64,000 bases of DNA, from NCBI RefSeq assembly GCF_050920415.1, contig NZ_CP169309.1, one strand, 5' to 3'. Origin of the DNA: Escherichia coli (GTDB lineage: Bacteria > Pseudomonadota > Gammaproteobacteria > Enterobacterales > Enterobacteriaceae). Under the pieces are notes generated by a model. It saw only the letters and a list, made by a program, of their open reading frames with translations. It ran no database searches and was not told the origin of the DNA. The position numbers and the translations under genes were made by a program. Positions 820 through 38,109 of the stretch are shown here, one piece after another (position 1 is the first letter of the stretch; each line of letters opens with the position of its first letter).

Positions 820-2082
820 ATGCCACATTCACTGTTCAGCACCGATACCGACCTCACCGCCGAAAATCTGCTGCGTTTGCCCGCAGAATTTGGCTGCCCG
901 GTGTGGGTCTACGATGCGCAAATTATTCGTCGGCAGATTGCAGCGCTGAAACAGTTTGATGTGGTGCGCTTTGCACAGAAAGCCTGTTCCAATATTCATA
1001 TTTTGCGCCTAATGCGTGAGCAGGGCGTAAAAGTGGATTCCGTCTCGTTAGGCGAAATAGAGCGTGCACTGGTGGCGGGTTACAATCCGCAAACGCACCC
1101 CGATGATATTGTTTTTACGGCAGATGTTATCGATCAGGCGACGCTTGAACGCGTCAGTGAATTGCAAATTCCGGTGAATGCGGGTTCTGTTGATATGCTC
1201 GACCAACTGGGTCAGGTTTCGCCAGGGCATCGGGTATGGCTGCGTGTTAACCCGGGGTTTGGTCACGGGCATAGCCAAAAAACCAATACCGGTGGCGAAA
1301 ACAGCAAGCACGGCATCTGGTATACCGACCTGCCAGCCGCACTGGAATTGATACAACGTCATCATCTGCAGCTGGTCGGTGTTCACATGCATATTGGTTC
1401 CGGCGTTGATTACGCACATCTGGAGCAGGTGTGTGGTGCTATGGTGCGTCAGGTCATCGAATTTGGTCAGGATTTACAGGCTATTTCTGCGGGCGGTGGG
1501 CTTTCTATTCCTTATCAACAGGGTGAAGAGGCGGTTGATACCGAACATTATTATGGTCTGTGGAATGCTGCGCGTGAGCAAATCGCCCGCCATTTGGGCC
1601 ATCCTGTGAAACTGGAAATTGAACCGGGTCGCTTTCTGGTAGCGCAGGCTGGCGTATTAATTACTCAAGTGCGGAGCGTCAAACAAATGGGTAGCCGCCA
1701 CTTTGTGCTGGTTGATGCCGGGTTCAACGATCTGATGCGCCCGGCAATGTACGGTAGTTACCACCATATCAGTGCCCTGGCATCTGATGGTCGTTCTCTG
1801 GAACATGCACCAACGGTGGAAACCGTCGTCGCCGGACCGTTATGTGAATCGGGCGATGTCTTTACCCAGCAGGAAGGGGGAAATGTCGAAACCCGCGCCT
1901 TGCCGGAAGTGAAGGCAGGTGATTATCTGGTACTGCATGATACAGGGGCATATGGCGCATCAATGTCATCCAACTACAATAGCCGTCCGCTGTTACCAGA
2001 AGTTCTGTTTGATAATGGTCAGGCGCGGTTGATTCGCCGACGCCAGACCATTGAAGAATTACTGGCGCTGGAATTGCTTTAA
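820..2082 (+). CDS. lysA: Diaminopimelate decarboxylase
   Basis: 420 aa ORF; sequence recognised as LysA; divergent from lysR as in E. coli. Confidence 0.95.
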   Translation: MPHSLFSTDTDLTAENLLRLPAEFGCPVWVYDAQIIRRQIAALKQFDVVRFAQKACSNIHILRLMREQGVKVDSVSLGEIERALVAGYNPQTHPDDIVFTADVIDQATLERVSELQIPVNAGSVDMLDQLGQVSPGHRVWLRVNPGFGHGHSQKTNTGGENSKHGIWYTDLPAALELIQRHHLQLVGVHMHIGSGVDYAHLEQVCGAMVRQVIEFGQDLQAISAGGGLSIPYQQGEEAVDTEHYYGLWNAAREQIARHLGHPVKLEIEPGRFLVAQAGVLITQVRSVKQMGSRHFVLVDAGFNDLMRPAMYGSYHHISALASDGRSLEHAPTVETVVAGPLCESGDVFTQQEGGNVETRALPEVKAGDYLVLHDTGAYGASMSSNYNSRPLLPEVLFDNGQARLIRRRQTIEELLALELL

Positions 2083-2088
2083 CTGCGG

Positions 2089-3120
2089 TTAGTCGCTGGT
2101 TGCATGATGACTTGCCTCCAGCGACGGAGTTGACACTGAATGGCGACGTACCAGCGTCGGACTAAAGACATTAGTGATTTCCGGGAGAGGGCGATTATCA
2201 GCCAGCGCCAAAGCCAGTTCGGCAGCCTGGGTCGCCATCGTCACGATTGGGTAACGCACGGTGGTCAGACGCGGGCGCACATAGCGTGACACCAGCACAT
2301 CATCAAAGCCAATTAACGAAATCTCACCCGGTACTTCAATACCATTATCATTGAGAACGCCCATCGCACCCGCCGCCATTGAATCGTTATAACAGGCTAC
2401 CGCAGTGAAATTCCTTCCGCGTCCCAAAAGCTCGGTCATTGCCTGTTCGCCGCCGCTTTCGTCTGGTTCGCCAAATGTCACCAGCCGATCATTGGCCGGA
2501 ATACCACTTTCAGCGAGGGCATCGTAATAACCCTGCAGACGATCTTCGGCGTCAGAAATAGAGTGGTTAGAGCACAGATAACCAATGCGGGTATGACCTT
2601 GTTGAATTAGATGACGCGTTGCCAGCCAGGCACCGTAACGGTCGTCCAGAGCAATACAACGGTTTTCAAAGCCAGGCAGGATGCGGTTGATCAGCACCAT
2701 ACCGGGCATTTGTTTCATTAATGAGGCTAAGTCGGCATCCGGGATCATTTTGGCATGGACGACCAGCGCAGCGCAGCGATGGCGGATCAGTTGCTCAATG
2801 GCCTGACGCTCTTTTTGCTCGTTGTGGTAACCGTTGCCAATCAATAAAAAATTACCAGTGTGATAAGCCACCTGTTCGACCGCTTTCACCATTGCACCGA
2901 AAAACGGATCGGAAACATCACCAACGACCAGACCGATCGTTTCAGTGGTCTGCTGCGCCAGCGCACGGGCGTTGGCGTTCGGGTGATAGCTAAGAGACTC
3001 CATTGCACTATGCACAGCCAGTCGGGAAGCTTCGCTGGCTTTGGGTGAATTATTAATGACGCGGGAAACGGTGGCGACTGAAACGCCTGCCAGTCGGGCT
3101 ACATCCTTTATGGTCGCCAT
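2089..3120 (-). CDS. galR: Galactose operon repressor (LacI family)
   Basis: 343 aa ORF starting MATIKDVARLAGVSVATVSRV (HTH); recognised as GalR. Confidence 0.95.
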   Translation of the reverse strand: MATIKDVARLAGVSVATVSRVINNSPKASEASRLAVHSAMESLSYHPNANARALAQQTTETIGLVVGDVSDPFFGAMVKAVEQVAYHTGNFLLIGNGYHNEQKERQAIEQLIRHRCAALVVHAKMIPDADLASLMKQMPGMVLINRILPGFENRCIALDDRYGAWLATRHLIQQGHTRIGYLCSNHSISDAEDRLQGYYDALAESGIPANDRLVTFGEPDESGGEQAMTELLGRGRNFTAVACYNDSMAAGAMGVLNDNGIEVPGEISLIGFDDVLVSRYVRPRLTTVRYPIVTMATQAAELALALADNRPLPEITNVFSPTLVRRHSVSTPSLEASHHATSD

Positions 3121-3333
3121 GAAAATACCTTAGTGGGTAAACGCTTACGTTCTGTCAGTGTTACGGAAAATACCTGTTGGTTCAAGTGGCGACGTGTTTT
3201 CATCGTGGGAATGTGAGCCAAACGCAAATAAATAAGACAAAAAAAGAGATTGCAAACCTTTGGTTACACTTTGCGAAACGCTGTTGCGATTGACCGCTGG
3301 TTGCGTTTGGCTTCAGGTTGCTAAAGTGGTGGT

Positions 3334-3416
3334 CCCAGAGGTATTGATAGGTGAAGTCAACTTCGGGTTGAGCACATGAATTACACCAGCCTGCGCAGAT
3401 GCGCAGGTTTTTTTTT
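3334..3416 (+). ncRNA. omrB: OmrB small regulatory RNA
   Basis: Starts CCCAGAGGTATTGATAGGTGA, ends with hairpin CCTGCGCAGATGCGCAGG plus T9; shares 5' and 3' ends with the adjacent copy; lies between galR and aas, where I recall the OmrA/OmrB pair. Confidence 0.85.
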
Positions 3417-3530
3417 GCCGGCCATCAATCTGTAACAGTAACCGACAATTTACACACCTCGTTGCATTTCCCTTCATTCCTTTGCGTTTTCTCGCTGGCG
3501 AAGAGTCGTTGTGCAGACCACAATCAAGAT

Positions 3531-3618
3531 CCCAGAGGTATTGATTGGTGAGATTATTCGGTACGCTCTTCGTACCCTGTCTCTTGCACCAACCTGCGCG
3601 GATGCGCAGGTTTTTTTT
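3531..3618 (+). ncRNA. omrA: OmrA small regulatory RNA
   Basis: Starts CCCAGAGGTATTGATTGGTGA, ends with hairpin CCTGCGCGGATGCGCAGG plus T8; paralogous to the upstream copy. Confidence 0.85.
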
Positions 3619-23725: not shown

Positions 23726-26700
23726 TGTCGCCGAGACACTAGATCCTTTGCGCTTGCCCTTACAGGGCGAGCGCCTGATTGAAGCCTCTGCCGGCACAGG
23801 CAAAACCTTTACGATTGCGGCGCTCTATTTGCGCCTGTTACTTGGACTAGGCGGTTCTGCCGCCTTTCCCCGCCCGCTGACCGTTGAAGAACTGCTGGTG
23901 GTGACCTTTACCGAGGCTGCCACGGCAGAATTGCGCGGTCGTATCCGTAGCAATATCCACGAGTTGCGCATCGCCTGTCTGCGTGAAACCACCGACAATC
24001 CACTGTACGAACGCCTGCTGGAAGAGATCGACGATAAAGCGCAAGCCGCGCAGTGGTTGTTGTTAGCCGAACGGCAGATGGATGAAGCGGCAGTCTTTAC
24101 TATTCACGGTTTTTGCCAGCGCATGCTCAACTTGAATGCCTTTGAATCCGGCATGCTGTTTGAGCAGCAGCTGATTGAAGATGAGTCTCTGCTACGCTAC
24201 CAGGCCTGCGCCGATTTCTGGCGTCGCCACTGCTACCCGCTGCCGCGTGAAATTGCCCAGGTGGTCTTTGAAACCTGGAAAGGACCGCAGGCGTTGCTGC
24301 GCGATATTAATCGTTATCTGCAAGGCGAAGCACCGGTTATCAAAGCACCGCCGCCCGATGATGAAACGCTGGCTTCCCGCCACGCGCAAATTGTGGCGCG
24401 TATTGATACGGTAAAACAGCAGTGGCGCGACGCAGTGGGTGAACTGGATGCGCTGATCGAATCTTCTGGTATTGATCGACGCAAGTTTAACCGTAGCAAT
24501 CAGGCTAAATGGATCGAGAAGATCAGTGCCTGGGCAGAAGAAGAGACCAACAGTTATCAGTTACCGGAGTCGCTGGAAAAATTCTCTCAGCGTTTCTTAG
24601 AAGATCGCACGAAAGCCGGGGGGGAAACCCCGCGACATCCACTGTTTGAGGCGATCGATCAACTGCTTGCAGAACCATTGTCGATCCGTGATCTGGTGAT
24701 CACCCGCGCATTGGCTGAGATCCGCGAAACAGTAGCGCGTGAAAAACGCCGCCGTGGCGAATTGGGTTTTGATGACATGTTAAGTCGGCTCGATTCCGCG
24801 CTGCGTAGCGAAAGCGGCGAGGTGTTGGCAGCGGCGATCCGTACGCGATTCCCGGTGGCAATGATTGATGAATTTCAGGATACCGACCCCCAGCAGTACC
24901 GAATTTTTCGCCGTATCTGGCACCATCAACCGGAAACTGCATTGTTGCTGATTGGCGACCCGAAACAGGCTATATATGCATTCCGTGGAGCGGATATCTT
25001 CACTTATATGAAGGCGCGTAATGAAGTTCACGCGCACTACACCTTAGACACCAACTGGCGCTCAGCACCTGGAATGGTGAACAGCGTGAATAAGCTTTTC
25101 AGTCAGACTGATGACGCGTTCATGTTTCGCGAAATACCGTTTATTCCAGTGAAATCAGCCGGGAAAAATCAGGCGTTACGTTTTGTGTTTAAAGGTGAAA
25201 CGCAGCCTGCGATGAAAATGTGGCTGATGGAAGGCGAAAGCTGCGGCGTTGGCGACTATCAAAGTACCATGGCGCAGGTATGTGCTGCGCAAATCCGCGA
25301 CTGGCTACAAGCCGGACAGCGGGGCGAAGCGTTGCTGATGAACGGCGACGACGCGCGTCCGGTGCGTGCTTCGGACATCAGTGTGCTGGTGCGCAGCCGC
25401 CAGGAGGCCGCTCAGGTGCGCGATGCCTTAACGCTGCTGGAAATCCCTTCCGTTTACCTTTCGAACCGCGACAGTGTTTTTGAAACTCTGGAAGCGCAGG
25501 AGATGCTTTGGCTGTTGCAGGCGGTGATGACACCAGAACGTGAGAACACTCTGCGCAGTGCGCTGGCAACGTCAATGATGGGGCTGAATGCGCTGGATAT
25601 TGAAACGCTGAATAATGACGAACATGCGTGGGATGCGGTAGTCGAAGAGTTCGATGGTTATCGGCAAATCTGGCGCAAACGTGGCGTTATGCCGATGCTG
25701 CGGGCGCTGATGTCGGCGCGTAACATTGCAGAAAACTTGCTGGCAACAGCAGGCGGTGAGCGACGGCTTACAGACATTTTGCATATCAGCGAACTGCTAC
25801 AAGAAGCCGGAACGCAGCTGGAAAGTGAACATGCGCTGGTACGCTGGTTATCGCAACATATCCTCGAGCCAGACAGTAATGCCTCCAGCCAACAAATGCG
25901 TCTCGAAAGTGATAAACATCTGGTGCAGATTGTCACGATCCACAAATCGAAAGGGCTGGAATATCCATTGGTCTGGCTGCCGTTTATCACCAATTTCCGC
26001 GTCCAGGATCAGGCGTTTTATCACGATCGCCACTCGTTTGAGGCTGTTCTGGATCTTAATGCTGCGCCAGAAAGCGTCGACCTCGCGGAGGCCGAACGTC
26101 TGGCGGAAGATCTGCGTTTGCTTTACGTTGCGCTGACGCGTTCGGTTTGGCATTGCAGTCTCGGCGTTGCACCGCTGGTGCGCCGTCGTGGCGATAAAAA
26201 AGGTGACACCGACGTCCACCAAAGTGCGCTCGGGCGTTTGCTGCAAAAAGGGGAACCGCAAGATGCGGCAGGGCTTCGCACCTGTATTGAAGCGTTGTGC
26301 GATGAGGATATTGCCTGGCAAACGGCACAAACGGGTGATAACCAGCCCTGGCAGTTTAATGATGTTTTTACAGCAGAACTGAATGCGAAGATGCTACAAC
26401 GATTGCCTGGCGATAACTGGCGCGTCACCAGCTATTCAGGTTTGCAGCAGCGTGGTCACGGTATCGCTCAGGATCTGATGCCACGGCTGGATGTTGATGC
26501 CGCAGGCGTGGTCAGCGTCGTTGAAGAACCGACGTTAACACCGCATCAGTTCCCGCGCGGTGCGTCACCAGGGACATTCTTGCACAGTTTGTTTGAAGAC
26601 CTCGATTTTACCCAGCCGGTTGACCCGAACTGGGTACAGGAAAAACTGGAACTCGGCGGCTTTGAATCGCAGTGGGAACCAGTATTGACCGAGTGGATCA

Positions 26701-30885: not shown

Positions 30886-32139
30886 ATGTCGGGATCCAAC
30901 ACAGCAATCAGCCGTCGTCGTTTACTGCAAGGCGCGGGTGCCATGTGGCTATTGAGCGTAAGTCAGGTCAGTCTGGCTGCGGTCAGCCAGGTCGTGGCGG
31001 TGCGCGTCTGGCCTGCGTCCAGCTACACCCGTGTGACGGTAGAATCTAATCGTCAGCTGAAATATAAGCAGTTCGCGTTGAGTAACCCTGAACGCGTGGT
31101 GGTGGATATCGAAGATGTAAACCTGAACTCAGTGCTCAAGGGGATGGCGGCACAAATTCGTGCTGATGACCCGTTCATTAAGTCGGCGCGCGTCGGGCAG
31201 TTTGACCCGCAAACCGTGCGGATGGTTTTTGAGTTAAAGCAAAACGTAAAACCGCAGCTGTTTGCCCTTGCTCCGGTCGCCGGGTTTAAAGAGCGTCTGG
31301 TGATGGATCTCTATCCTGCCAATGCTCAGGACATGCAGGACCCGCTGCTGGCGCTGCTGGAGGATTACAATAAAGGCGATCTCGAAAAGCAGGTGCCGCC
31401 TGCGCAGAGTGGCCCGCAGCCAGGCAAAGCAGGGCGCGATCGTCCGATTGTCATTATGCTTGACCCTGGCCATGGCGGCGAAGACTCCGGTGCGGTGGGG
31501 AAATACAAAACGCGTGAAAAAGACGTGGTATTGCAAATTGCCCGCCGTTTGCGCTCTCTGATTGAGAAAGAGGGCAATATGAAAGTTTACATGACCCGTA
31601 ATGAAGACATCTTCATTCCGTTGCAAGTGCGCGTAGCAAAAGCACAGAAACAGCGTGCTGACTTGTTTGTCTCTATTCATGCCGATGCCTTTACCAGTCG
31701 CCAGCCGAGCGGTTCCTCTGTGTTTGCGCTCTCTACCAAAGGTGCAACCAGTACCGCGGCAAAATATCTGGCGCAAACTCAGAACGCCTCGGACTTGATT
31801 GGTGGCGTGAGTAAGAGCGGCGACCGTTATGTCGACCATACTATGTTCGATATGGTGCAGTCGCTGACCATTGCCGACAGTCTGAAGTTTGGTAAAGCTG
31901 TGTTGAATAAGCTCGGTAAAATCAACAAGCTGCATAAAAATCAGGTTGAACAAGCCGGGTTTGCCGTGCTGAAAGCGCCTGATATACCCTCTATTTTGGT
32001 CGAAACGGCGTTTATCAGTAACGTTGAGGAAGAACGTAAACTGAAAACGGCAACCTTCCAGCAGGAAGTTGCGGAATCAATCCTCGCAGGGATAAAAGCG
32101 TATTTTGCCGATGGGGCGACGCTGGCGAGAAGGGGATAA
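30886..32139 (+). CDS. amiC: N-acetylmuramoyl-L-alanine amidase AmiC (Tat-exported)
   Basis: Start at ATG 30886 ([19 protein letters not shown] twin-arginine signal); amidase_3 domain. Confidence 0.93.
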
Positions 32140-32310
32140 TGTTTTTATTTATTCAATGAATTTATATTTCGTTGAATAGATAATATTTACCTGAATATTA
32201 GACGTTGGTTTTGTGACTGATGTCGAATATTTGAATGTCGGCTTGAAAAATAAGCCGACCATCTCTTTAATTAAGCACAATTCCGTGTAATGTATATGCA
32301 TTAGTTAATC

Positions 32311-32340
32311 ATCTTGTAACTGTTAAATCAGGCAAGGCAA
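32311..32340 (+). promoter_or_regulatory. RAT (ribonucleic antiterminator) element of a BglG/SacY-type antitermination leader
   Basis: ATCTTGTAACTGTTAAATCAGGCAAGGCAA resembles the RAT consensus GGATTGTTACTG-N6-CAGGCAAAACC and overlaps the 5' arm of the following terminator. Confidence 0.65.
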
Positions 32341-32385
32341 TGTTTGAAGTAATTATTACTTCTGACGTGCCTTGCCTTTTTTTTT
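32329..32385 (+). terminator. Leader terminator partnered with the RAT
   Basis: 10 bp stem AGGCAAGGCA / TGCCTTGCCT with ~28 nt loop, followed by T9 (32377-32385), directly upstream of the antiterminator RBS GGAG. Confidence 0.7.
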
Positions 32386-32396
32386 GGAGCTATGGA

Positions 32397-33220
32397 ATGA
32401 TCATCGAAAAAGTCATGAACAATAATTGTGTACAGGCATCGATGAATGGACAGGAGGTTATCATTTCTGGGCCTGGCGTCGGTTACAAAAAAAATATGGA
32501 ATGTCGGTCCCTGAGCATCCGGCTAACCGGATTTTTTATGTCAGAAATGAACAAAAAAATAAACTCTACAAATTGATTGAGCATGTGGATATTGAGTATA
32601 TTTTTGTTGCCGAATAAATAGTGCAATATGCGGAGAACAATCTCGAAAAAAATCTCAATCCATCGCTACTATTGATTCTTGCTGATCATATTTCGAATGC
32701 AATATCCCGAGTCGCTTCAGGCATACAAATTAATAATGTTTTCCTTGATGAAATCAAAGCGTTGTACAAAGCAGAGTATGCGATAAGTCGCGATGCATTA
32801 ACTATCATTAATGAGCAATTCAGCGTTCAACTTCCTGATGATGAGATTGGTTTTATAGCATTGCATATTTTAAATAATTATGAGAATTCAGTTGATTATG
32901 AATCAGTACGGATTATTGAGTTGTCGCAAATAATCACGGGGCTTATTGAAGTTGTTTATAACAGAAAGGTGGACAGAAGTTCATTTAATTATTCCAGGTT
33001 CATGATACACCTTAAATATTTTTCAAGTCGCGTATTATGCAATGAAAAAATAAAACAGAAAGATATTGGTGATCTCTATGAACAGTTTCTTGAGAAAGAC
33101 ATTCTGTTACAGCGCGCAATTCATGAAATTGAAAGGTATTTGTACGCCACTTTTAAATATGAATTGATTTTGGAAGAAAAACTATATCTCTCTATTCGCA
33201 CCAAAGTATTAATGGACTGA
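32397..33220 (+). pseudogene. BglG/LicT-family transcription antiterminator (CAT-PRD1-PRD2), disrupted
   Basis: CAT domain MIIEKVMNNNCVQASMNGQEVIISGPGVGYKK in one frame; continuation ...RIFYVRNEQKNKLYKLIEHVDIEYIFVAE in the -1 frame after an A8 run (32486-32493); in-frame TAA at 32615-32617; PRD region continues to 33220 (FIALHIL, FMIHLKYF conserved His). Confidence 0.8.
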
Positions 33221-33251: not shown

Positions 33252-34832
33252 ATGAAACAAAAGAAAGCCTGGAGTTTTTTTCAGAGCCTGGGAAAGGCAT
33301 TTATGTATCCCATCGCTCTGCTAAGTGTATGTGGCATGATGTTAGGGCTAGGAAGTGGTTTAGCCAGCGATGATATGGCAAAATTAATTCCACTACTGGC
33401 TATTCCCGTAATTAAAACCATTCTTGATTTTATTGTTAGCCTTGGTTTGTTTGCCTTTGTCAATTTACCTGTATTGTTTGCGATAGCTATACCTCTGGGG
33501 TTATTAAAAGAGAAAGAGGATAAAGCCTATGGCGCTTTTTCTGGCTTAATTGGTTTCATGGCGATGCATCTGGGAACGAACTTTTATCTTAAACAACATG
33601 ACTTATTGGTCGCTGCTGATCAAATGTCGACACATGGGCAAACCATTATTCTGGGAATCCAGTCCTACAATACCAGTGTGTTGGGTGGGATTATAGCAGG
33701 ATTATTAGTCGCCAGTATGTATAAAAAGATCGTTAACTTACGTATTCCTGAATCATTAGGATTTTATAGTGGCCCACGCCTGGTGCCTATTATTACACTG
33801 ATTGTGATGAGTGGATTTGGTCTGATCATCCCTTTTATCTGGCCGCCATTTTTCAATCTTTTCATGCTCATTGGCCACTGGATTTCAACTTCCGGTCCTG
33901 TTGGCTATTTTTTCTATGCAGTCGCCGAACGCGTGACGATACCTTTTGGTTTAAATCACCTGGTGACGTCAGTTTTCCGCTTTACCCCCATCGGCGGATC
34001 GGCAGTGATCGGCGGAGAAGAGTATTATGGCACCCTGAACATGTTTATGGCGTACGTCAAAGAGAATGCGGTCATTCCGCTGGAGTTGGCGGGGAAAATG
34101 GAACAGGGCAAACTGATGATTCAGTATGGTCTGGCTGGTGCCGCGCTGGCGATGTATCGCACTGCTCATGCTCAAAACAGAAAAGCTATCAAAGCATTGC
34201 TTATTTCCGGGGTGCTTACAGTCATTATTGGCGGCGTCAGCGAACCGATTGAGTTTCTGTTCTTATTTGTCAGTCCACTGCTATTTGTCTTCCATGCTTT
34301 TATGAATGGATTCGCCAACATGGTCTTGCCATATATGGGCGTGAAGATGGGATTTACTGGCGATCTGATTCAATTTATTAGCTTTGGCGTATTGCGTGGC
34401 ACAAGAACAGGTTGGCCAATAGCGGTGTGTGTCGAAGTGGCCTATTTCTTTATTTATTACTTTGTGTTCCGTTGGACTATTCTCAAATTTAACCTGATGA
34501 CGGTAGGCCGTGAAGAGTCCAGTCCTGTCACGCTGAACGCTCATGAGGATACGGCTATAGCGGATATCCCAACGCTTGATAAATCAGAGCTGCAAGCAGC
34601 GGAGCAGATGGTTAAGGCACTTGGTGGTAAAGAGAATATTAAATCCCTGGATAATTGCGTAACTCGTTTACGTTTAACAATCGCAGATATGGGATTGATT
34701 GACGAGGCAGCAATAAAAAGAGCTGGCGGAATTGCGGTTGTTAAACTTGATCAAAATACCCTACAAGTCATTATCGGTACTAAAGTCATCGCCTTGCGTC
34801 GGGATATGGATAACTACATGGGGATATGCTGA
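33252..34832 (+). CDS. PTS sugar transporter EIICB, glucose/maltose family, no EIIA domain
   Basis: 526 aa; polytopic EIIC with SEPIEF motif; C-terminal EIIB with phospho-Cys motif NCVTRLR. Confidence 0.9.
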   Translation: MKQKKAWSFFQSLGKAFMYPIALLSVCGMMLGLGSGLASDDMAKLIPLLAIPVIKTILDFIVSLGLFAFVNLPVLFAIAIPLGLLKEKEDKAYGAFSGLIGFMAMHLGTNFYLKQHDLLVAADQMSTHGQTIILGIQSYNTSVLGGIIAGLLVASMYKKIVNLRIPESLGFYSGPRLVPIITLIVMSGFGLIIPFIWPPFFNLFMLIGHWISTSGPVGYFFYAVAERVTIPFGLNHLVTSVFRFTPIGGSAVIGGEEYYGTLNMFMAYVKENAVIPLELAGKMEQGKLMIQYGLAGAALAMYRTAHAQNRKAIKALLISGVLTVIIGGVSEPIEFLFLFVSPLLFVFHAFMNGFANMVLPYMGVKMGFTGDLIQFISFGVLRGTRTGWPIAVCVEVAYFFIYYFVFRWTILKFNLMTVGREESSPVTLNAHEDTAIADIPTLDKSELQAAEQMVKALGGKENIKSLDNCVTRLRLTIADMGLIDEAAIKRAGGIAVVKLDQNTLQVIIGTKVIALRRDMDNYMGIC

Positions 34833-36007
34833 TGGATGTTTTTAATACTCCTATTTCCCGCAAAGGAACATATTGTACCCAATGGGACTTTTGCGAGGAC
34901 AGATTTGGTGTAAAAGATGTATTACCATTCTCTATTTCAGATATGGATCTTCCGATACCGGAAGCTATCATCAGGGCATTAAGAAAACGTCTGGAACACC
35001 CGATTTTAGGGTACAGCCGTTGGCAGCATGATGACTATCTGAATGCGATAGTCAATTGGTATCATCAACAATATAAAACTGAAATCAAACCAGAATGGAT
35101 CACCTATAGCCCAAGCGTGATGTACTCCATTGCTAAAGCAATAGAGTTATTGACATCGCATGGTGATAATATTCTCGTTTTTACACCTGTCTATAATGCA
35201 TTTTTTGATATAATTAAACATAGCGAGAGAAATATTCTGACAGCCTCTTTGATTATAAAAAATGAGGGGGGCTACGCTATCAATTGGCAAGATTTTGATC
35301 TTAAGATTCAAAGCGCAAAGATGGTGTTATTATGTAATCCTCATAACCCGACAGGAACCGTCTGGTCGGAAGAAGAGCTGCATAAAATCGCTGCAAGCTG
35401 TGCAAGACATAATGTCTGGTTATGTTCAGATGAAATTCACAGTGATTTTGTTTTTAATCGTAGCTTTACATCTGCGCTTAAAATAAAAAAAGAAAAAGTA
35501 GTGGTGTTTAATTCGATATCGAAGACATTTAATGTTCCTGCGCTAACAGGATCGTATATGATTTCAACTGACGATAATTTTAATCATAAGTTCAGGACGA
35601 TATCAAGATATCGCGATTTTGTAAACTCCCCATCCGTACTGAATATAATTGCAACTATTATTGCCTATAACGAATGTGAGGGATGGTTAAAGTCATTAAA
35701 GGCACATATTGCCTCTAACATTCAATTCACCCAGCAGTATCTGAACGAAAATACTCCAGAATTGATTGTAAGGCCTGCTGATGGTTGCTATTTTTCGTGG
35801 ATAGATTGCTCTGCTATTGGTTATCCCTTTGATGAATTCTACAGTCGATTAATTCATGAAGGCAAAGTGGGCATTATGGCGGGGAATGTCTATGGAACGG
35901 AGGGGGAGGGCTACCTTCGTCTGAACCTGGCCTGCGGTCGAGAAAAATTATATATGGGGCTTACGCGTCTTGCGAGTGTAATTAAAAATATTAATCAAGG
36001 AAAATAA
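34832..36007 (+). CDS. MalY/PatB-like PLP-dependent C-S lyase (aminotransferase class I/II fold)
   Basis: N-terminus MDVFNTPISRKGTYCTQWD aligns with E. coli MalY MFDFSKVVDRHGTWCTQWD; SxSKTFN PLP-lysine region; alternative ATG at 34826 overlaps the PTS stop. Confidence 0.88.
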   Translation: MDVFNTPISRKGTYCTQWDFCEDRFGVKDVLPFSISDMDLPIPEAIIRALRKRLEHPILGYSRWQHDDYLNAIVNWYHQQYKTEIKPEWITYSPSVMYSIAKAIELLTSHGDNILVFTPVYNAFFDIIKHSERNILTASLIIKNEGGYAINWQDFDLKIQSAKMVLLCNPHNPTGTVWSEEELHKIAASCARHNVWLCSDEIHSDFVFNRSFTSALKIKKEKVVVFNSISKTFNVPALTGSYMISTDDNFNHKFRTISRYRDFVNSPSVLNIIATIIAYNECEGWLKSLKAHIASNIQFTQQYLNENTPELIVRPADGCYFSWIDCSAIGYPFDEFYSRLIHEGKVGIMAGNVYGTEGEGYLRLNLACGREKLYMGLTRLASVIKNINQGK

Positions 36008-36009
36008 AA

Positions 36010-36606
36010 ATGAACAGCACGGATCTTATCCATCTCATTAAACATTTTATGCGTAACGAACATAAAGCAGTTGAAGAAGTTATTGATTCCCCCCTTTCGG
36101 AGGTCGCAAATTTAATTAAAGTATTACAGTCTTGTCAGGGGAAAGTTGTTTTTATTGGTGTCGGTAAGTCCGGTATTATTGCCCGAAAACTCGCCGCAAC
36201 ATTTGCCAGCACTGGAACTCCCTCGTTTTTTGTTCACGGTACTGAAGCCGTACACGGCGATCTTGGGATGGTGGCGAAAGATGATGTTGTTATTCTTATT
36301 TCAAACAGTGGTGAGACGACAGAAATCCTGGCAACACTACCTAGTCTGAAAAAAATGGGTAATTATTTGATCTCCTTTACCCGCAGTCATCGCTCATCGC
36401 TTGCGATAAGTTGTGATTTATCCGTTGAAATTCCCGTAAAAAGTGAGGCGGATAATTTAGGTTTAGCGCCGTCATGCTCATCAACAGTCGTTCTGGTTGT
36501 TGGTGATGCGGTGGCGCTTGCGCTCTCCGAATTGAAAAAGTTTACTTGTGCTGATTTCGGCTTATATCATCCAGGAGGTGCGCTCGGTATTAAAGCAAAC
36601 TCATAA
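36010..36606 (+). CDS. SIS-domain-only sugar-phosphate isomerase, KdsD/GutQ-like without CBS domains
   Basis: 198 aa; GVGKSGIIARKLAATFASTGTPSFFVHGTEAVHGDLGMV and SNSGET closely resemble the KdsD SIS domain; ORF ends where CBS domains would begin. Confidence 0.88.
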   Translation: MNSTDLIHLIKHFMRNEHKAVEEVIDSPLSEVANLIKVLQSCQGKVVFIGVGKSGIIARKLAATFASTGTPSFFVHGTEAVHGDLGMVAKDDVVILISNSGETTEILATLPSLKKMGNYLISFTRSHRSSLAISCDLSVEIPVKSEADNLGLAPSCSSTVVLVVGDAVALALSELKKFTCADFGLYHPGGALGIKANS

Positions 36607-36676: not shown

Positions 36677-37624
36677 ATGAAAAACGTTCTGGTCACCGTT
36701 CCCAGCTTTTCAGCGCGTTGTGTTTCTGCCAGCAAGCTGCTAAGAGAAAATCATTTTAACCTTATTATCAAGAATAATGTGGAGCATCTGGTTAAATCAG
36801 AATCCACAGTATTACGAGAATCTATTTGCGCAGTCATTGCCGGAAAAGATTGTTATCAAGCGGATACGTTATCGCGACTACCAGGAGTGAAAATAATATC
36901 GAGATTCGGGACAGGGATTGATAATATTGATCTTCATACGGCTCGACAATCAGGTATTGTGGTCAATAATGCTGTTGGGATTAATTCAAATGCAGTCGCG
37001 GAATTTATCATTGGTCTTATTTTTGCGAGCATGAGAAATATCCCCGGTAGCTATCATGCGATGCAAAATGGTTATTGGGGCGAGTCGCATGGCTGCGAGT
37101 TACAAGGTAAACGTATTGGCCTGCTTGGCTACGGCAATATTGGCAAAACACTGGCGAAAAGGTTATCTGGTTTTGATGTTGAGCTTTTAGCTTTTGACAA
37201 ACAACCCGATTTCCAGGCCGCAGGCAAAGATGGAGTTCAGTTCGTATCAATTGAAGATATCTTTATGCAGTCTCATGTCATCATCGTTCTTTTGCCATTT
37301 TCTCCGGAGCTGGAGAACTTCATTAGTCATAAATATTTGTCGATGATGCGCAATGGTGCTCTTATCATCAACGCCGCAAGGGGAAAGTTGCTGGATGAGA
37401 GTGCTTTACTTCAGGTAATTGAAGAACGAAATGTTTTTGCAGCACTGGATGTGTTTAGCTCTGAACCGCTAGCGCAATTTAGCCCATTGCTACATGCCAG
37501 GAATATCATTACAACGCCGCATATTGCGGCCGCCACCGTTGAGTCATACCAGCAAACCGGGATATACGTTGCCAGGTCGATAATAGATTTCTTTGCAGGA
37601 AGGGAGATAAAAAACGTGCTGTGA
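36677..37624 (+). CDS. NAD-dependent D-isomer-specific 2-hydroxyacid dehydrogenase
   Basis: About 315 aa; NAD-binding GLLGYGNIGKT and catalytic-region TPHIAAAT; start could alternatively be GTG at 36668. Confidence 0.85.
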   Translation: MKNVLVTVPSFSARCVSASKLLRENHFNLIIKNNVEHLVKSESTVLRESICAVIAGKDCYQADTLSRLPGVKIISRFGTGIDNIDLHTARQSGIVVNNAVGINSNAVAEFIIGLIFASMRNIPGSYHAMQNGYWGESHGCELQGKRIGLLGYGNIGKTLAKRLSGFDVELLAFDKQPDFQAAGKDGVQFVSIEDIFMQSHVIIVLLPFSPELENFISHKYLSMMRNGALIINAARGKLLDESALLQVIEERNVFAALDVFSSEPLAQFSPLLHARNIITTPHIAAATVESYQQTGIYVARSIIDFFAGREIKNVL

Positions 37625-37702: not shown

Positions 37703-37779
<77 letters not shown>

Positions 37780-37812
37780 TCACCGTACTGCTTTACTTCA
37801 TCAAATTTTGAT

Positions 37813-37889
<77 letters not shown>

Positions 37890-37922
37890 TCACCGTACTG
37901 CTTTACTTCATCAAATTTTAAT

Positions 37923-37999
<77 letters not shown>

Positions 38000-38032
38000 T
38001 CACCGTACTGCTTTACTTCATCAAATTTTAAT

Positions 38033-38109
<77 letters not shown>

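Follow-up and report, generated by a model that had tools for sequence, protein, structure and literature searches.

The locus described here raises the question of whether a regulatory gene carrying two lesions has simply decayed, or whether one of those lesions, a homopolymer, serves as a switch for the genes downstream. The initial annotation of the window (the whole 64,000-nucleotide stretch of Escherichia coli DNA that was analysed) reported a BglG/LicT-family antiterminator gene disrupted by both a run of eight adenines (A8) and an in-frame TAA codon. It suggested that the A8 tract could act as a contingency switch, and took the nonsense codon as an argument for true decay. The regulator is an ordinary case of very recent, clone-specific pseudogenisation, and is already annotated as such by RefSeq.

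In the window, ptrA-recB-recD, argA and amiC are followed by an AT-rich islet of five genes, then by initiator tRNA-Met genes in four tandem copies and by mltA, which places the islet between amiC and the metZWV initiator-tRNA genes. The GC content of the islet is 0.35-0.44, compared with 0.50-0.55 in its flanks. The same gene set is found in strain CFT073 as c3405-c3410 of PAI-metV, where it is described as 'PTS system, maltose/glucose specific' and as a set of genes that uropathogenic strains conserve in colinear order (PMC2831201). Of 5426 complete E. coli genomes, 1688 gave a match to a 1.1-kb probe over the regulator and so carry the islet. The regulator is the first gene of the islet and is followed by four structural genes (Table 1), which are intact as the initial annotation had stated, judging from both the PGAP annotation and NCBIfam matches. 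The product of the first of these has PTS_EIIC and PTS_EIIB domains and scores 536 bits against TIGR02004 (PTS-IIBC-malX), which is under the curated cutoff of 632. Its gene starts 31 nt 3' of the regulator, the linkage to a PTS permease that is typical of the BglG family, and the permease (EIICB) is presumed to be both sensor and partner of the antiterminator. The MalY/PatB-family protein scores 368.7 bits against TIGR04350, over the cutoff of 340.

The identity of the regulator was established using the intact orthologue from N96, the nearest complete genome. This protein matches Pfam CAT_RBD at residues 1-55 (E=2.7e-14) and PRD at residues 73-160 (E=1.6e-23). The LicT homology quoted in the initial annotation is reproduced by a search of PDB sequences, in which the orthologue aligns with LicT entries 1tlv and 6twr (E=1e-31 for each) to the end of PRD2 (residue 269), and it also matches the LicT CAT structure 1l1c. 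Thus the gene encodes the CAT RNA-binding domain of the BglG/SacY/LicT family, but no working product in the window carries it. In PRD1 of the orthologue, His98 and His157 are conserved. The Pfam match to PRD2 is weak (E=0.085), but this region aligns with LicT PRD2 and His205 is conserved; the equivalent of LicT His269 is Arg268 in the E. coli/Atlantibacter clade, whereas 43 of 52 homologues have His there. None of the named NCBIfam models reaches its cutoff, with 227.8 bits for LicT (NF046042; cutoff 300), 179.6 for GlcT (cutoff 320) and 104.7 for BglG (cutoff 322); the protein is therefore a member of the BglG/SacY family and not an orthologue of any named one. Full-length relatives form an E. 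coli cluster of 3606 member sequences. Proteins of Atlantibacter are 77-80% identical, and the next relatives, which are the nearest outside the enterobacteria, are clostridial LicT proteins with about 36% identity. A literature search found no inducing sugar for the islet regulator and no publication on its function.

In the established mechanism for this family, a CAT dimer binds the ribonucleic antiterminator (RAT) and blocks formation of the terminator, and the PRDs are under PTS control (PMC12591593, PMC3575810). A leader of this type precedes the islet regulator, in agreement with the initial annotation: on the evidence of sequence and folding, a RAT-like hairpin overlaps an intrinsic terminator, with the 3' arm of the RAT (CAGGCAAGG) shared with the 5' arm of the terminator. 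When the RAT region is folded alone, it forms a bulged hairpin. The islet RAT and both K-12 bgl RATs (RAT1 and RAT2) have the common core TTGT.ACTG...CAGGCAA. The RAT is near-invariant in 15 intact alleles with coding divergence up to about 8%, with only one allele showing a single change in the apical loop. The RNA fold of positions 32290-32400 has an energy of -32.4 kcal/mol (z = -4.0). The T run following the terminator hairpin varies from T7 to T10 among strains, and the leader of the window is identical to that of its intact relative N96. The four tRNAs were the only hits of an Rfam search of the window at E<=1, in which no family matched the RAT hairpin. A simple scan of the leader for a sigma-70 consensus promoter found none; the same scan also missed the leader terminator, presumably due to its long composite stem, although the terminator is evident in the RNA fold.

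Table 1. Features of the islet and its leader in the window.
Feature	Position	Strand	State or effect	Basis
RAT-like antiterminator hairpin	32312..32337	+		folding and comparison with bgl RAT
Leader intrinsic terminator (extended hairpin 32330-32377, then T9 run 32377-32385)	32330..32385	+	intact	
BglG/LicT-family antiterminator gene (CAT-PRD1-PRD2; 274 aa if intact)	32397..33220	+	pseudogene	three-frame translation and PGAP
A8 homopolymer (codons 31-33, inside CAT domain)	32487..32494	+	causes frameshift	
In-frame TAA for Lys74 (start of PRD1)	32615..32617	+	stop	
PTS EIICB permease, MalX-like (maltose/glucose family)	33252..34832	+	intact	PGAP annotation
MalY/PatB-family PLP-dependent C-S lyase	34832..36007	+	intact	NCBIfam and PGAP
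SIS-domain (KpsF/GutQ-like) sugar-phosphate isomerase	36010..36606	+	intact	PGAP and NCBIfam
D-2-hydroxyacid / phosphoglycerate dehydrogenase-like gene (last of islet)	36677..37624	+	intact	

Three-frame translation shows that the native frame opens with the ATG at 32397 and continues through ...GPGVGY (codon 30). The A8 tract follows; the initial annotation was right about the frameshift, but placed the tract at 32486-32493, which is one base low. Homology then resumes in another frame (YGMSVPEH...FVAE) up to the TAA, and beyond this codon it runs on as IVQYAENNLEKNL... undamaged to the stop at 33218-33220. The stop codon was therefore correctly reported as lying within continuous homology, where it replaces Lys74. 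Translation from the ATG terminates at a TGA at 32574-32576, giving a 59-aa product of which the first 30 residues are native and the following 29 are out-of-frame (the first two of these, residues 31-32, are Lys, which the A9 allele discussed below also has). A 199-aa open reading frame has a GTG start directly after the TAA; its product is short of only the first few residues of PRD1, but an RNA-binding domain is missing.

Four strands within 55 residues are required to form the CAT fold (PMC12591593). As the frameshift falls inside this fold, no RNA-binding protein is made. The TAA alone is a weaker sign of true decay than the initial annotation had assumed, since a stop at codon 74 spares the complete CAT domain, and isolated LicT and SacY CAT domains are constitutively active (PMC3575810). 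The conclusion that the gene is a pseudogene stands, with the protein killed by the TAA in combination with the frameshift within the CAT domain.

Comparison across strains, which the initial annotation had proposed, recovered both intact versions of the gene and tracts of three lengths (A8, A9 and A10). All 15 of the intact E. coli alleles that were read are uninterrupted 825-nt open reading frames (274 codons). Their codons 31-33 read AAC AAA AAA, the species-wide allele (one has AAT in place of AAC), and codon 74 is AAA in most and AAG in some. Divergence among these alleles is mostly synonymous (for example, 57 synonymous versus 18 non-synonymous codons), indicating that the regulator is under purifying selection species-wide. 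Over 1121 nt, N96 differs from the window at only two positions: it has a C in the tract, and an A rather than a T at 32615. These alleles, together with the direct reading, the three-frame translation and the PGAP annotation, bear out the double disruption. Both lesions are rare: with a 90-nt query, the A8 context was found in one of the 1677 complete genomes that have this stretch, and the exact 61-nt TAA context is likewise present in a single complete genome. Among the other genomes for which annotation was inspected, the regulator is intact in 16 of 17. The exception is 1517k, in which the regulator is split by an IS3 element and the structural genes are intact; this loss is an independent event. 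Only 2 of the 1688 genomes have a large interruption of the 1.1-kb probe.

The two lesions recur in public data. The complete RefSeq genome MFDS1022581 is 100% identical to the window over 25 kb (it may be the window's own genome), and PGAP gives its regulator pseudogene status with the note 'frameshifted; internal stop'; a literature search found no mention of this strain. In public assemblies, exact copies of the 59-aa frameshift product occur in 66 blocks and of the 199-aa product in 57. Seven loci were examined in NCBI drafts and in metagenome assemblies from ENA. All seven have both A8 and TAA, and several have private SNPs elsewhere, indicating that they are separate isolates of one clone. 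Assemblies with A8 and TAA include GCA_041384325.1, GCA_018706865.1 and GCA_015339945.1. The gene is thus damaged relative to intact, conserved orthologues, and the damage is repeated in independent assemblies: both lesions are genuine and fixed in one many-times-sequenced clone. An error of sequencing or assembly that conceals an intact gene might be considered, given that homopolymers are error-prone and that one older assembly (L023) shows a further -1, of uncertain reliability, in the A7 run nearby (32553-32559). This reading is effectively refuted already: the two lesions are seen together in a complete genome, in independent drafts with private SNPs and in metagenome assemblies, and the TAA, as a substitution, does not depend on calling the length of a homopolymer. 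We consider there to be almost no chance that the true sequence is intact.

The history of the tract can be followed in related alleles. Three loci from NCBI draft genomes (L025, L028 and L029), reached via a 239-aa product (MSVPEH...) that cannot tell an A8-only allele from A10, have A10; they are frameshifted, but codon 74 is AAA and there is no TAA. A fourth locus (L027, on one 8-kb Logan contig, run SRR32868946) has A9, which is in frame and encodes an intact protein with the substitution N31K. The prediction in the initial annotation that A9 would restore the frame is thereby borne out on a near-identical haplotype, and this allele is the likely precursor of A8. The A9 and A10 alleles carry all of the derived markers of the window islet (EIICB G255G and D278E; MalY D182E, R255R and I312I; SIS R180C; PGDH G242S), a haplotype marked by 34085G, 35377G, 36547T and 37400A. 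The A9 contig and the A10 genomes are ancestral at amiC 31179. At both recD sites the A10 genomes are ancestral as well, and their tRNA-fMet genes number three versus four in the window. Among complete genomes, neither A9 nor A10 occurs within the flanking sequence of the window. The A9 allele, being on a single Logan contig, could be a homopolymer miscall. Even if it is discounted, the presence of A8 and A10 on one haplotype indicates that the tract has changed length more than once.

The most likely and most economical history is one in which N31K preceded slippage. Codon 31 would have changed from AAC to AAA on one haplotype, fusing AA and AAAAAA into A9. Single-base slippage of this run would then have shortened it to A8 in the window clone and lengthened it to A10 in a sister lineage. 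Codon 74 of the A8 clone would also have changed from AAA to TAA, either before or after A8 arose; the 73-aa products expected of AAC+TAA and of A9+TAA are not on record. Residue 31 corresponds to Gln31 of SacT and Gln32 of LicT, an RNA-contacting position that helps to set RAT specificity (PMC3105407). Lys is the commonest residue at this position across 52 homologues, suggesting that N31K was probably tolerated. Taken together, the locus is very probably best explained as a young pseudogene formed by N31K, slippage from A9 to A8 and A10 and the TAA change, heading an operon that is probably silent.

A simpler origin of A8 is deletion of the C from AACAAAAAA in one step, with no A9 intermediate and with A10 unrelated; the gene would be a plain pseudogene in this case also. 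The tract of N96 differs by that C alone, so that a single event is enough, no A9 or A10 allele is seen in complete genomes with this flank, and without the A9 contig the two origins are equally parsimonious for the window clone. Against this, the A9 and A10 alleles are on exactly the derived islet haplotype of the window, and A10 lacks the C, such that a C-to-A change (or a +2 expansion of A8) is needed on this haplotype anyway. We therefore regard the one-step origin as unlikely. Our first reading, that A8 was a plain C deletion and that the contingency idea was baseless, was revised after the A10 and A9 alleles were found. With A8 (off), A9 (on) and A10 (off) all on one islet haplotype, the tract shows the length switching expected of a contingency locus, and the initial annotation was correct insofar as the tract is length-unstable and has toggled the frame in the past. 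There is no sign that such switching is ongoing in the TAA clone. For a live switch, A8 would toggle with A9 by replication or transcriptional slippage, and A9 would yield a 73-aa, CAT-only, sugar-independent antiterminator. The three tract lengths among near-identical haplotypes are consistent with this proposal, as are the position of the codon 74 stop after the complete CAT domain (residues 1-55), the constitutive activity of isolated LicT and SacY CAT domains (PMC3575810) and the location of the gene behind its own RAT and terminator, where a little active protein would amplify itself. However, every TAA-clone contig that was read has A8; the products of A9+TAA (73 aa) and of A7 are not on record in the assembly collection; and the uninterrupted tract is missing from all 15 intact alleles, which indicates that selection has not favoured it as a mutable element. 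In addition, a run of eight adenines is short for E. coli RNA polymerase to slip on efficiently. Programmed frameshifting was considered and rejected, as no stimulatory element lies at the canonical distance from the A run (an AGGAGG is 28 nt upstream and a hairpin is 22 nt downstream), and this spacing counts against the live switch as well. Reversible switching of a conserved tract within a clone is not seen among the contigs read, ongoing phase variation in the window clone is not supported, and a live switch is very improbable. An A9 revertant of the TAA clone would not be null, and could be a constitutive antiterminator. Still less probable is that the double lesion is a rewired switch, in which slippage from A8 to A9 would give stochastic, PTS-independent on/off expression of the islet through a self-amplifying, 73-aa, CAT-only protein.

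If the locus is a young pseudogene, its consequences can be predicted from the bgl, sac and lic systems. Transcription from the operon promoter would end at the intact leader terminator (at about 32385), and on read-through, the approximately 675 nt of untranslated message before EIICB would add polarity. By analogy with the family mechanism, the four intact structural genes are probably silent, with the operon held off at the terminator. This silencing could be leaky, through terminator read-through or the action of another antiterminator on the RAT. Expression maintained in this way, whether by cross-talk from another BglG-family protein (such as BglG) or by sufficient read-through, is improbable. 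The islet RAT is identical to bgl RAT1 at 16 of 29 positions, including the conserved core, and cross-talk between CAT/RAT pairs of the bgl and sac types is documented for B. subtilis (PMC3105407). In contrast, the specificity-bearing nucleotides of the basal stem and loop differ from those of bgl, the bgl operon is H-NS-silenced in E. coli (PMC2646131) and annotated as 'cryptic' in K-12, and the long untranslated RNA ahead of EIICB would favour polarity. Rescue by BglG may thus be possible in principle, but appears unlikely in practice. It might also be proposed that the gene has become two functional genes, one for a 59-aa fragment of the CAT domain and the other for a 199-aa protein with PRDs alone, since gene callers call both open reading frames and these match the CAT_RBD and PRD families. 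Given that the former has only about 30 native CAT residues followed by 29 out-of-frame residues, that the latter is without an RNA-binding domain and that the arrangement is only as old as one clone, the chance that the fragments are separately functional is very slight.

The loss of the regulator is very recent, as neither the leader RAT and terminator nor the regulator and four structural genes have acquired any further change or substitution since the split of A8, A9 and A10. This recency accounts for the intactness of the structural genes, which is hence not evidence that selection keeps them. Relaxed selection on these genes was also considered: those of the window haplotype have four derived amino acid changes and three synonymous ones, but all are common to the A9 and A10 alleles and thus predate inactivation.

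The islet is a conserved accessory metabolic module; roughly one in three complete E. coli genomes carries it, and in uropathogenic strains it belongs to a pathogenicity island. Lacking a working regulator, this widely sampled clone is predicted to be unable to induce the pathway, which can inform metabolic inferences and typing, and the lesion pair provides a clean clonal marker. Although the loss of the regulator opens no new biological question, it adds a small new detail: a homopolymer that was most likely born by point mutation and then slipped both ways in sister lineages. It is a compact textbook example of how one substitution (N31K) makes a homopolymer that breaks a gene in two ways.

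The islet can be compared with several known systems. Like the phase-variable contingency loci and homopolymer pseudogenes of enterobacteria, it has a coding poly-A tract whose length toggles the reading frame. Unlike in contingency loci, the tract is not conserved, having most likely originated recently on one haplotype through a point mutation; the clone shows no switching, and a second, non-reversible lesion (TAA) is fixed. PAI-CFT073-metV contains the same islet (c3405-c3410) at the same chromosomal site as the window, with amiC on one side and the metV tRNA cluster on the other. SE15 and 21F61 also have the type VI secretion portion of PAI-metV, but it is missing in both the window and N96, where the islet stands alone beside the tRNA genes. 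The closest parallels in organization are bglGFB/BglG, LicT, SacY and SacT, which have the same layout: a RAT overlapping a terminator, a CAT-PRD1-PRD2 gene in first position and a PTS EII permease. The window differs from the BglG, LicT and SacY systems in that its regulator is dead. The islet permease is MalX-like (glucose/maltose family), whereas that of bgl is a beta-glucoside permease, and the islet has a single RAT/terminator, with none in the 31-nt spacer between regulator and permease, unlike bgl. The bgl locus and the islet are nevertheless alike in being AT-rich, horizontally acquired and decaying in some lineages (PMC2646131).

The regulator, the BglG/LicT-family antiterminator that is a pseudogene in the clone carrying both the A8 tract and the in-frame TAA, has been damaged more than once. 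An independent inactivation is found in E. coli 1517k (NZ_CP054388.1; L014, positions 1386-3546), where an IS3-family insertion separates the CAT and PRD parts of the gene; downstream of this insertion, EIICB and MalY are both undamaged, and the sequence shown extends into the beginning of the SIS gene. An older assembly of the A8+TAA clone (L023, GCA_000194575.2) has one more base missing in the adjacent A7 run, which represents either a sequencing error in the homopolymer or further decay. In the ecoli_genomes collection the regulator probe matches at 1691 places, one of which is on a plasmid rather than a chromosome.

Each of the four structural genes of the islet has one derived amino acid replacement. 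These replacements predate the regulator lesions, because all four are common to the A9 (in-frame) and A10 (frameshifted) alleles of relatives with the same islet haplotype. The flanking metZWV cluster has changed in this clone: three initiator tRNA-Met copies are present in N96 (the nearest complete genome with an intact regulator), in strain 2017-02-2CC and in the A10 relatives, versus four in the window, and therefore one unit has been gained by this clone. When the window is compared with the A10 relatives, recB contains a dense cluster of approximately 32 single nucleotide polymorphisms (SNPs) and the rest of the 20 kb is almost identical; from the distribution of these SNPs, the recB block looks like a recombination tract.

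Positions of the features discussed
Feature	Window position	Strand	Details
recB SNP cluster	24911-26129		
Hairpin GTCGGCTT GAAAAAT AAGCCGAC	32237-32259		~100 nt past amiC stop codon (32137-32139), upstream of islet leader
Leader terminator T run and the C directly 5' of it	32376-32385		T7 to T10
Terminator-like hairpin ATCCGGCTAACCGGAT then TTTTT	32517-32532		Within regulator coding sequence, 22 nt 3' of A-tract
A7 run	32553-32559		
Codon 268 of intact regulator	33197-33199		
Derived structural-gene replacements	34085, 35377, 36547, 37400		EIICB D278E, MalY D182E, SIS R180C, PGDH G242S
Four initiator tRNA-Met genes (metZWV)	37706-38109	-	Tandem, 110-nt period
Additional tRNA-Met unit	37811-37920		110 nt

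The T run behind the leader terminator, together with the preceding C, varies in length between strains. Outside this clone, all length variation in the 1.1-kb regulator probe falls at this site and none in the coding sequence; terminator efficiency could be modulated by this variation. The terminator-like hairpin within the regulator gene is also found in N96 and in both aligned intact alleles (strains 21F61 and SE15). The hairpin downstream of amiC is without a proper T tail and may be either the amiC terminator or a boundary of the islet.

Codon 268 of the intact regulator is the counterpart of LicT His269, the second phosphorylatable histidine of PRD2. This position is a histidine in 43 of 52 homologues overall and an arginine in all eight full-length sequences aligned from the E. 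coli/Atlantibacter clade, in which one HPr-dependent activation site may have been lost.
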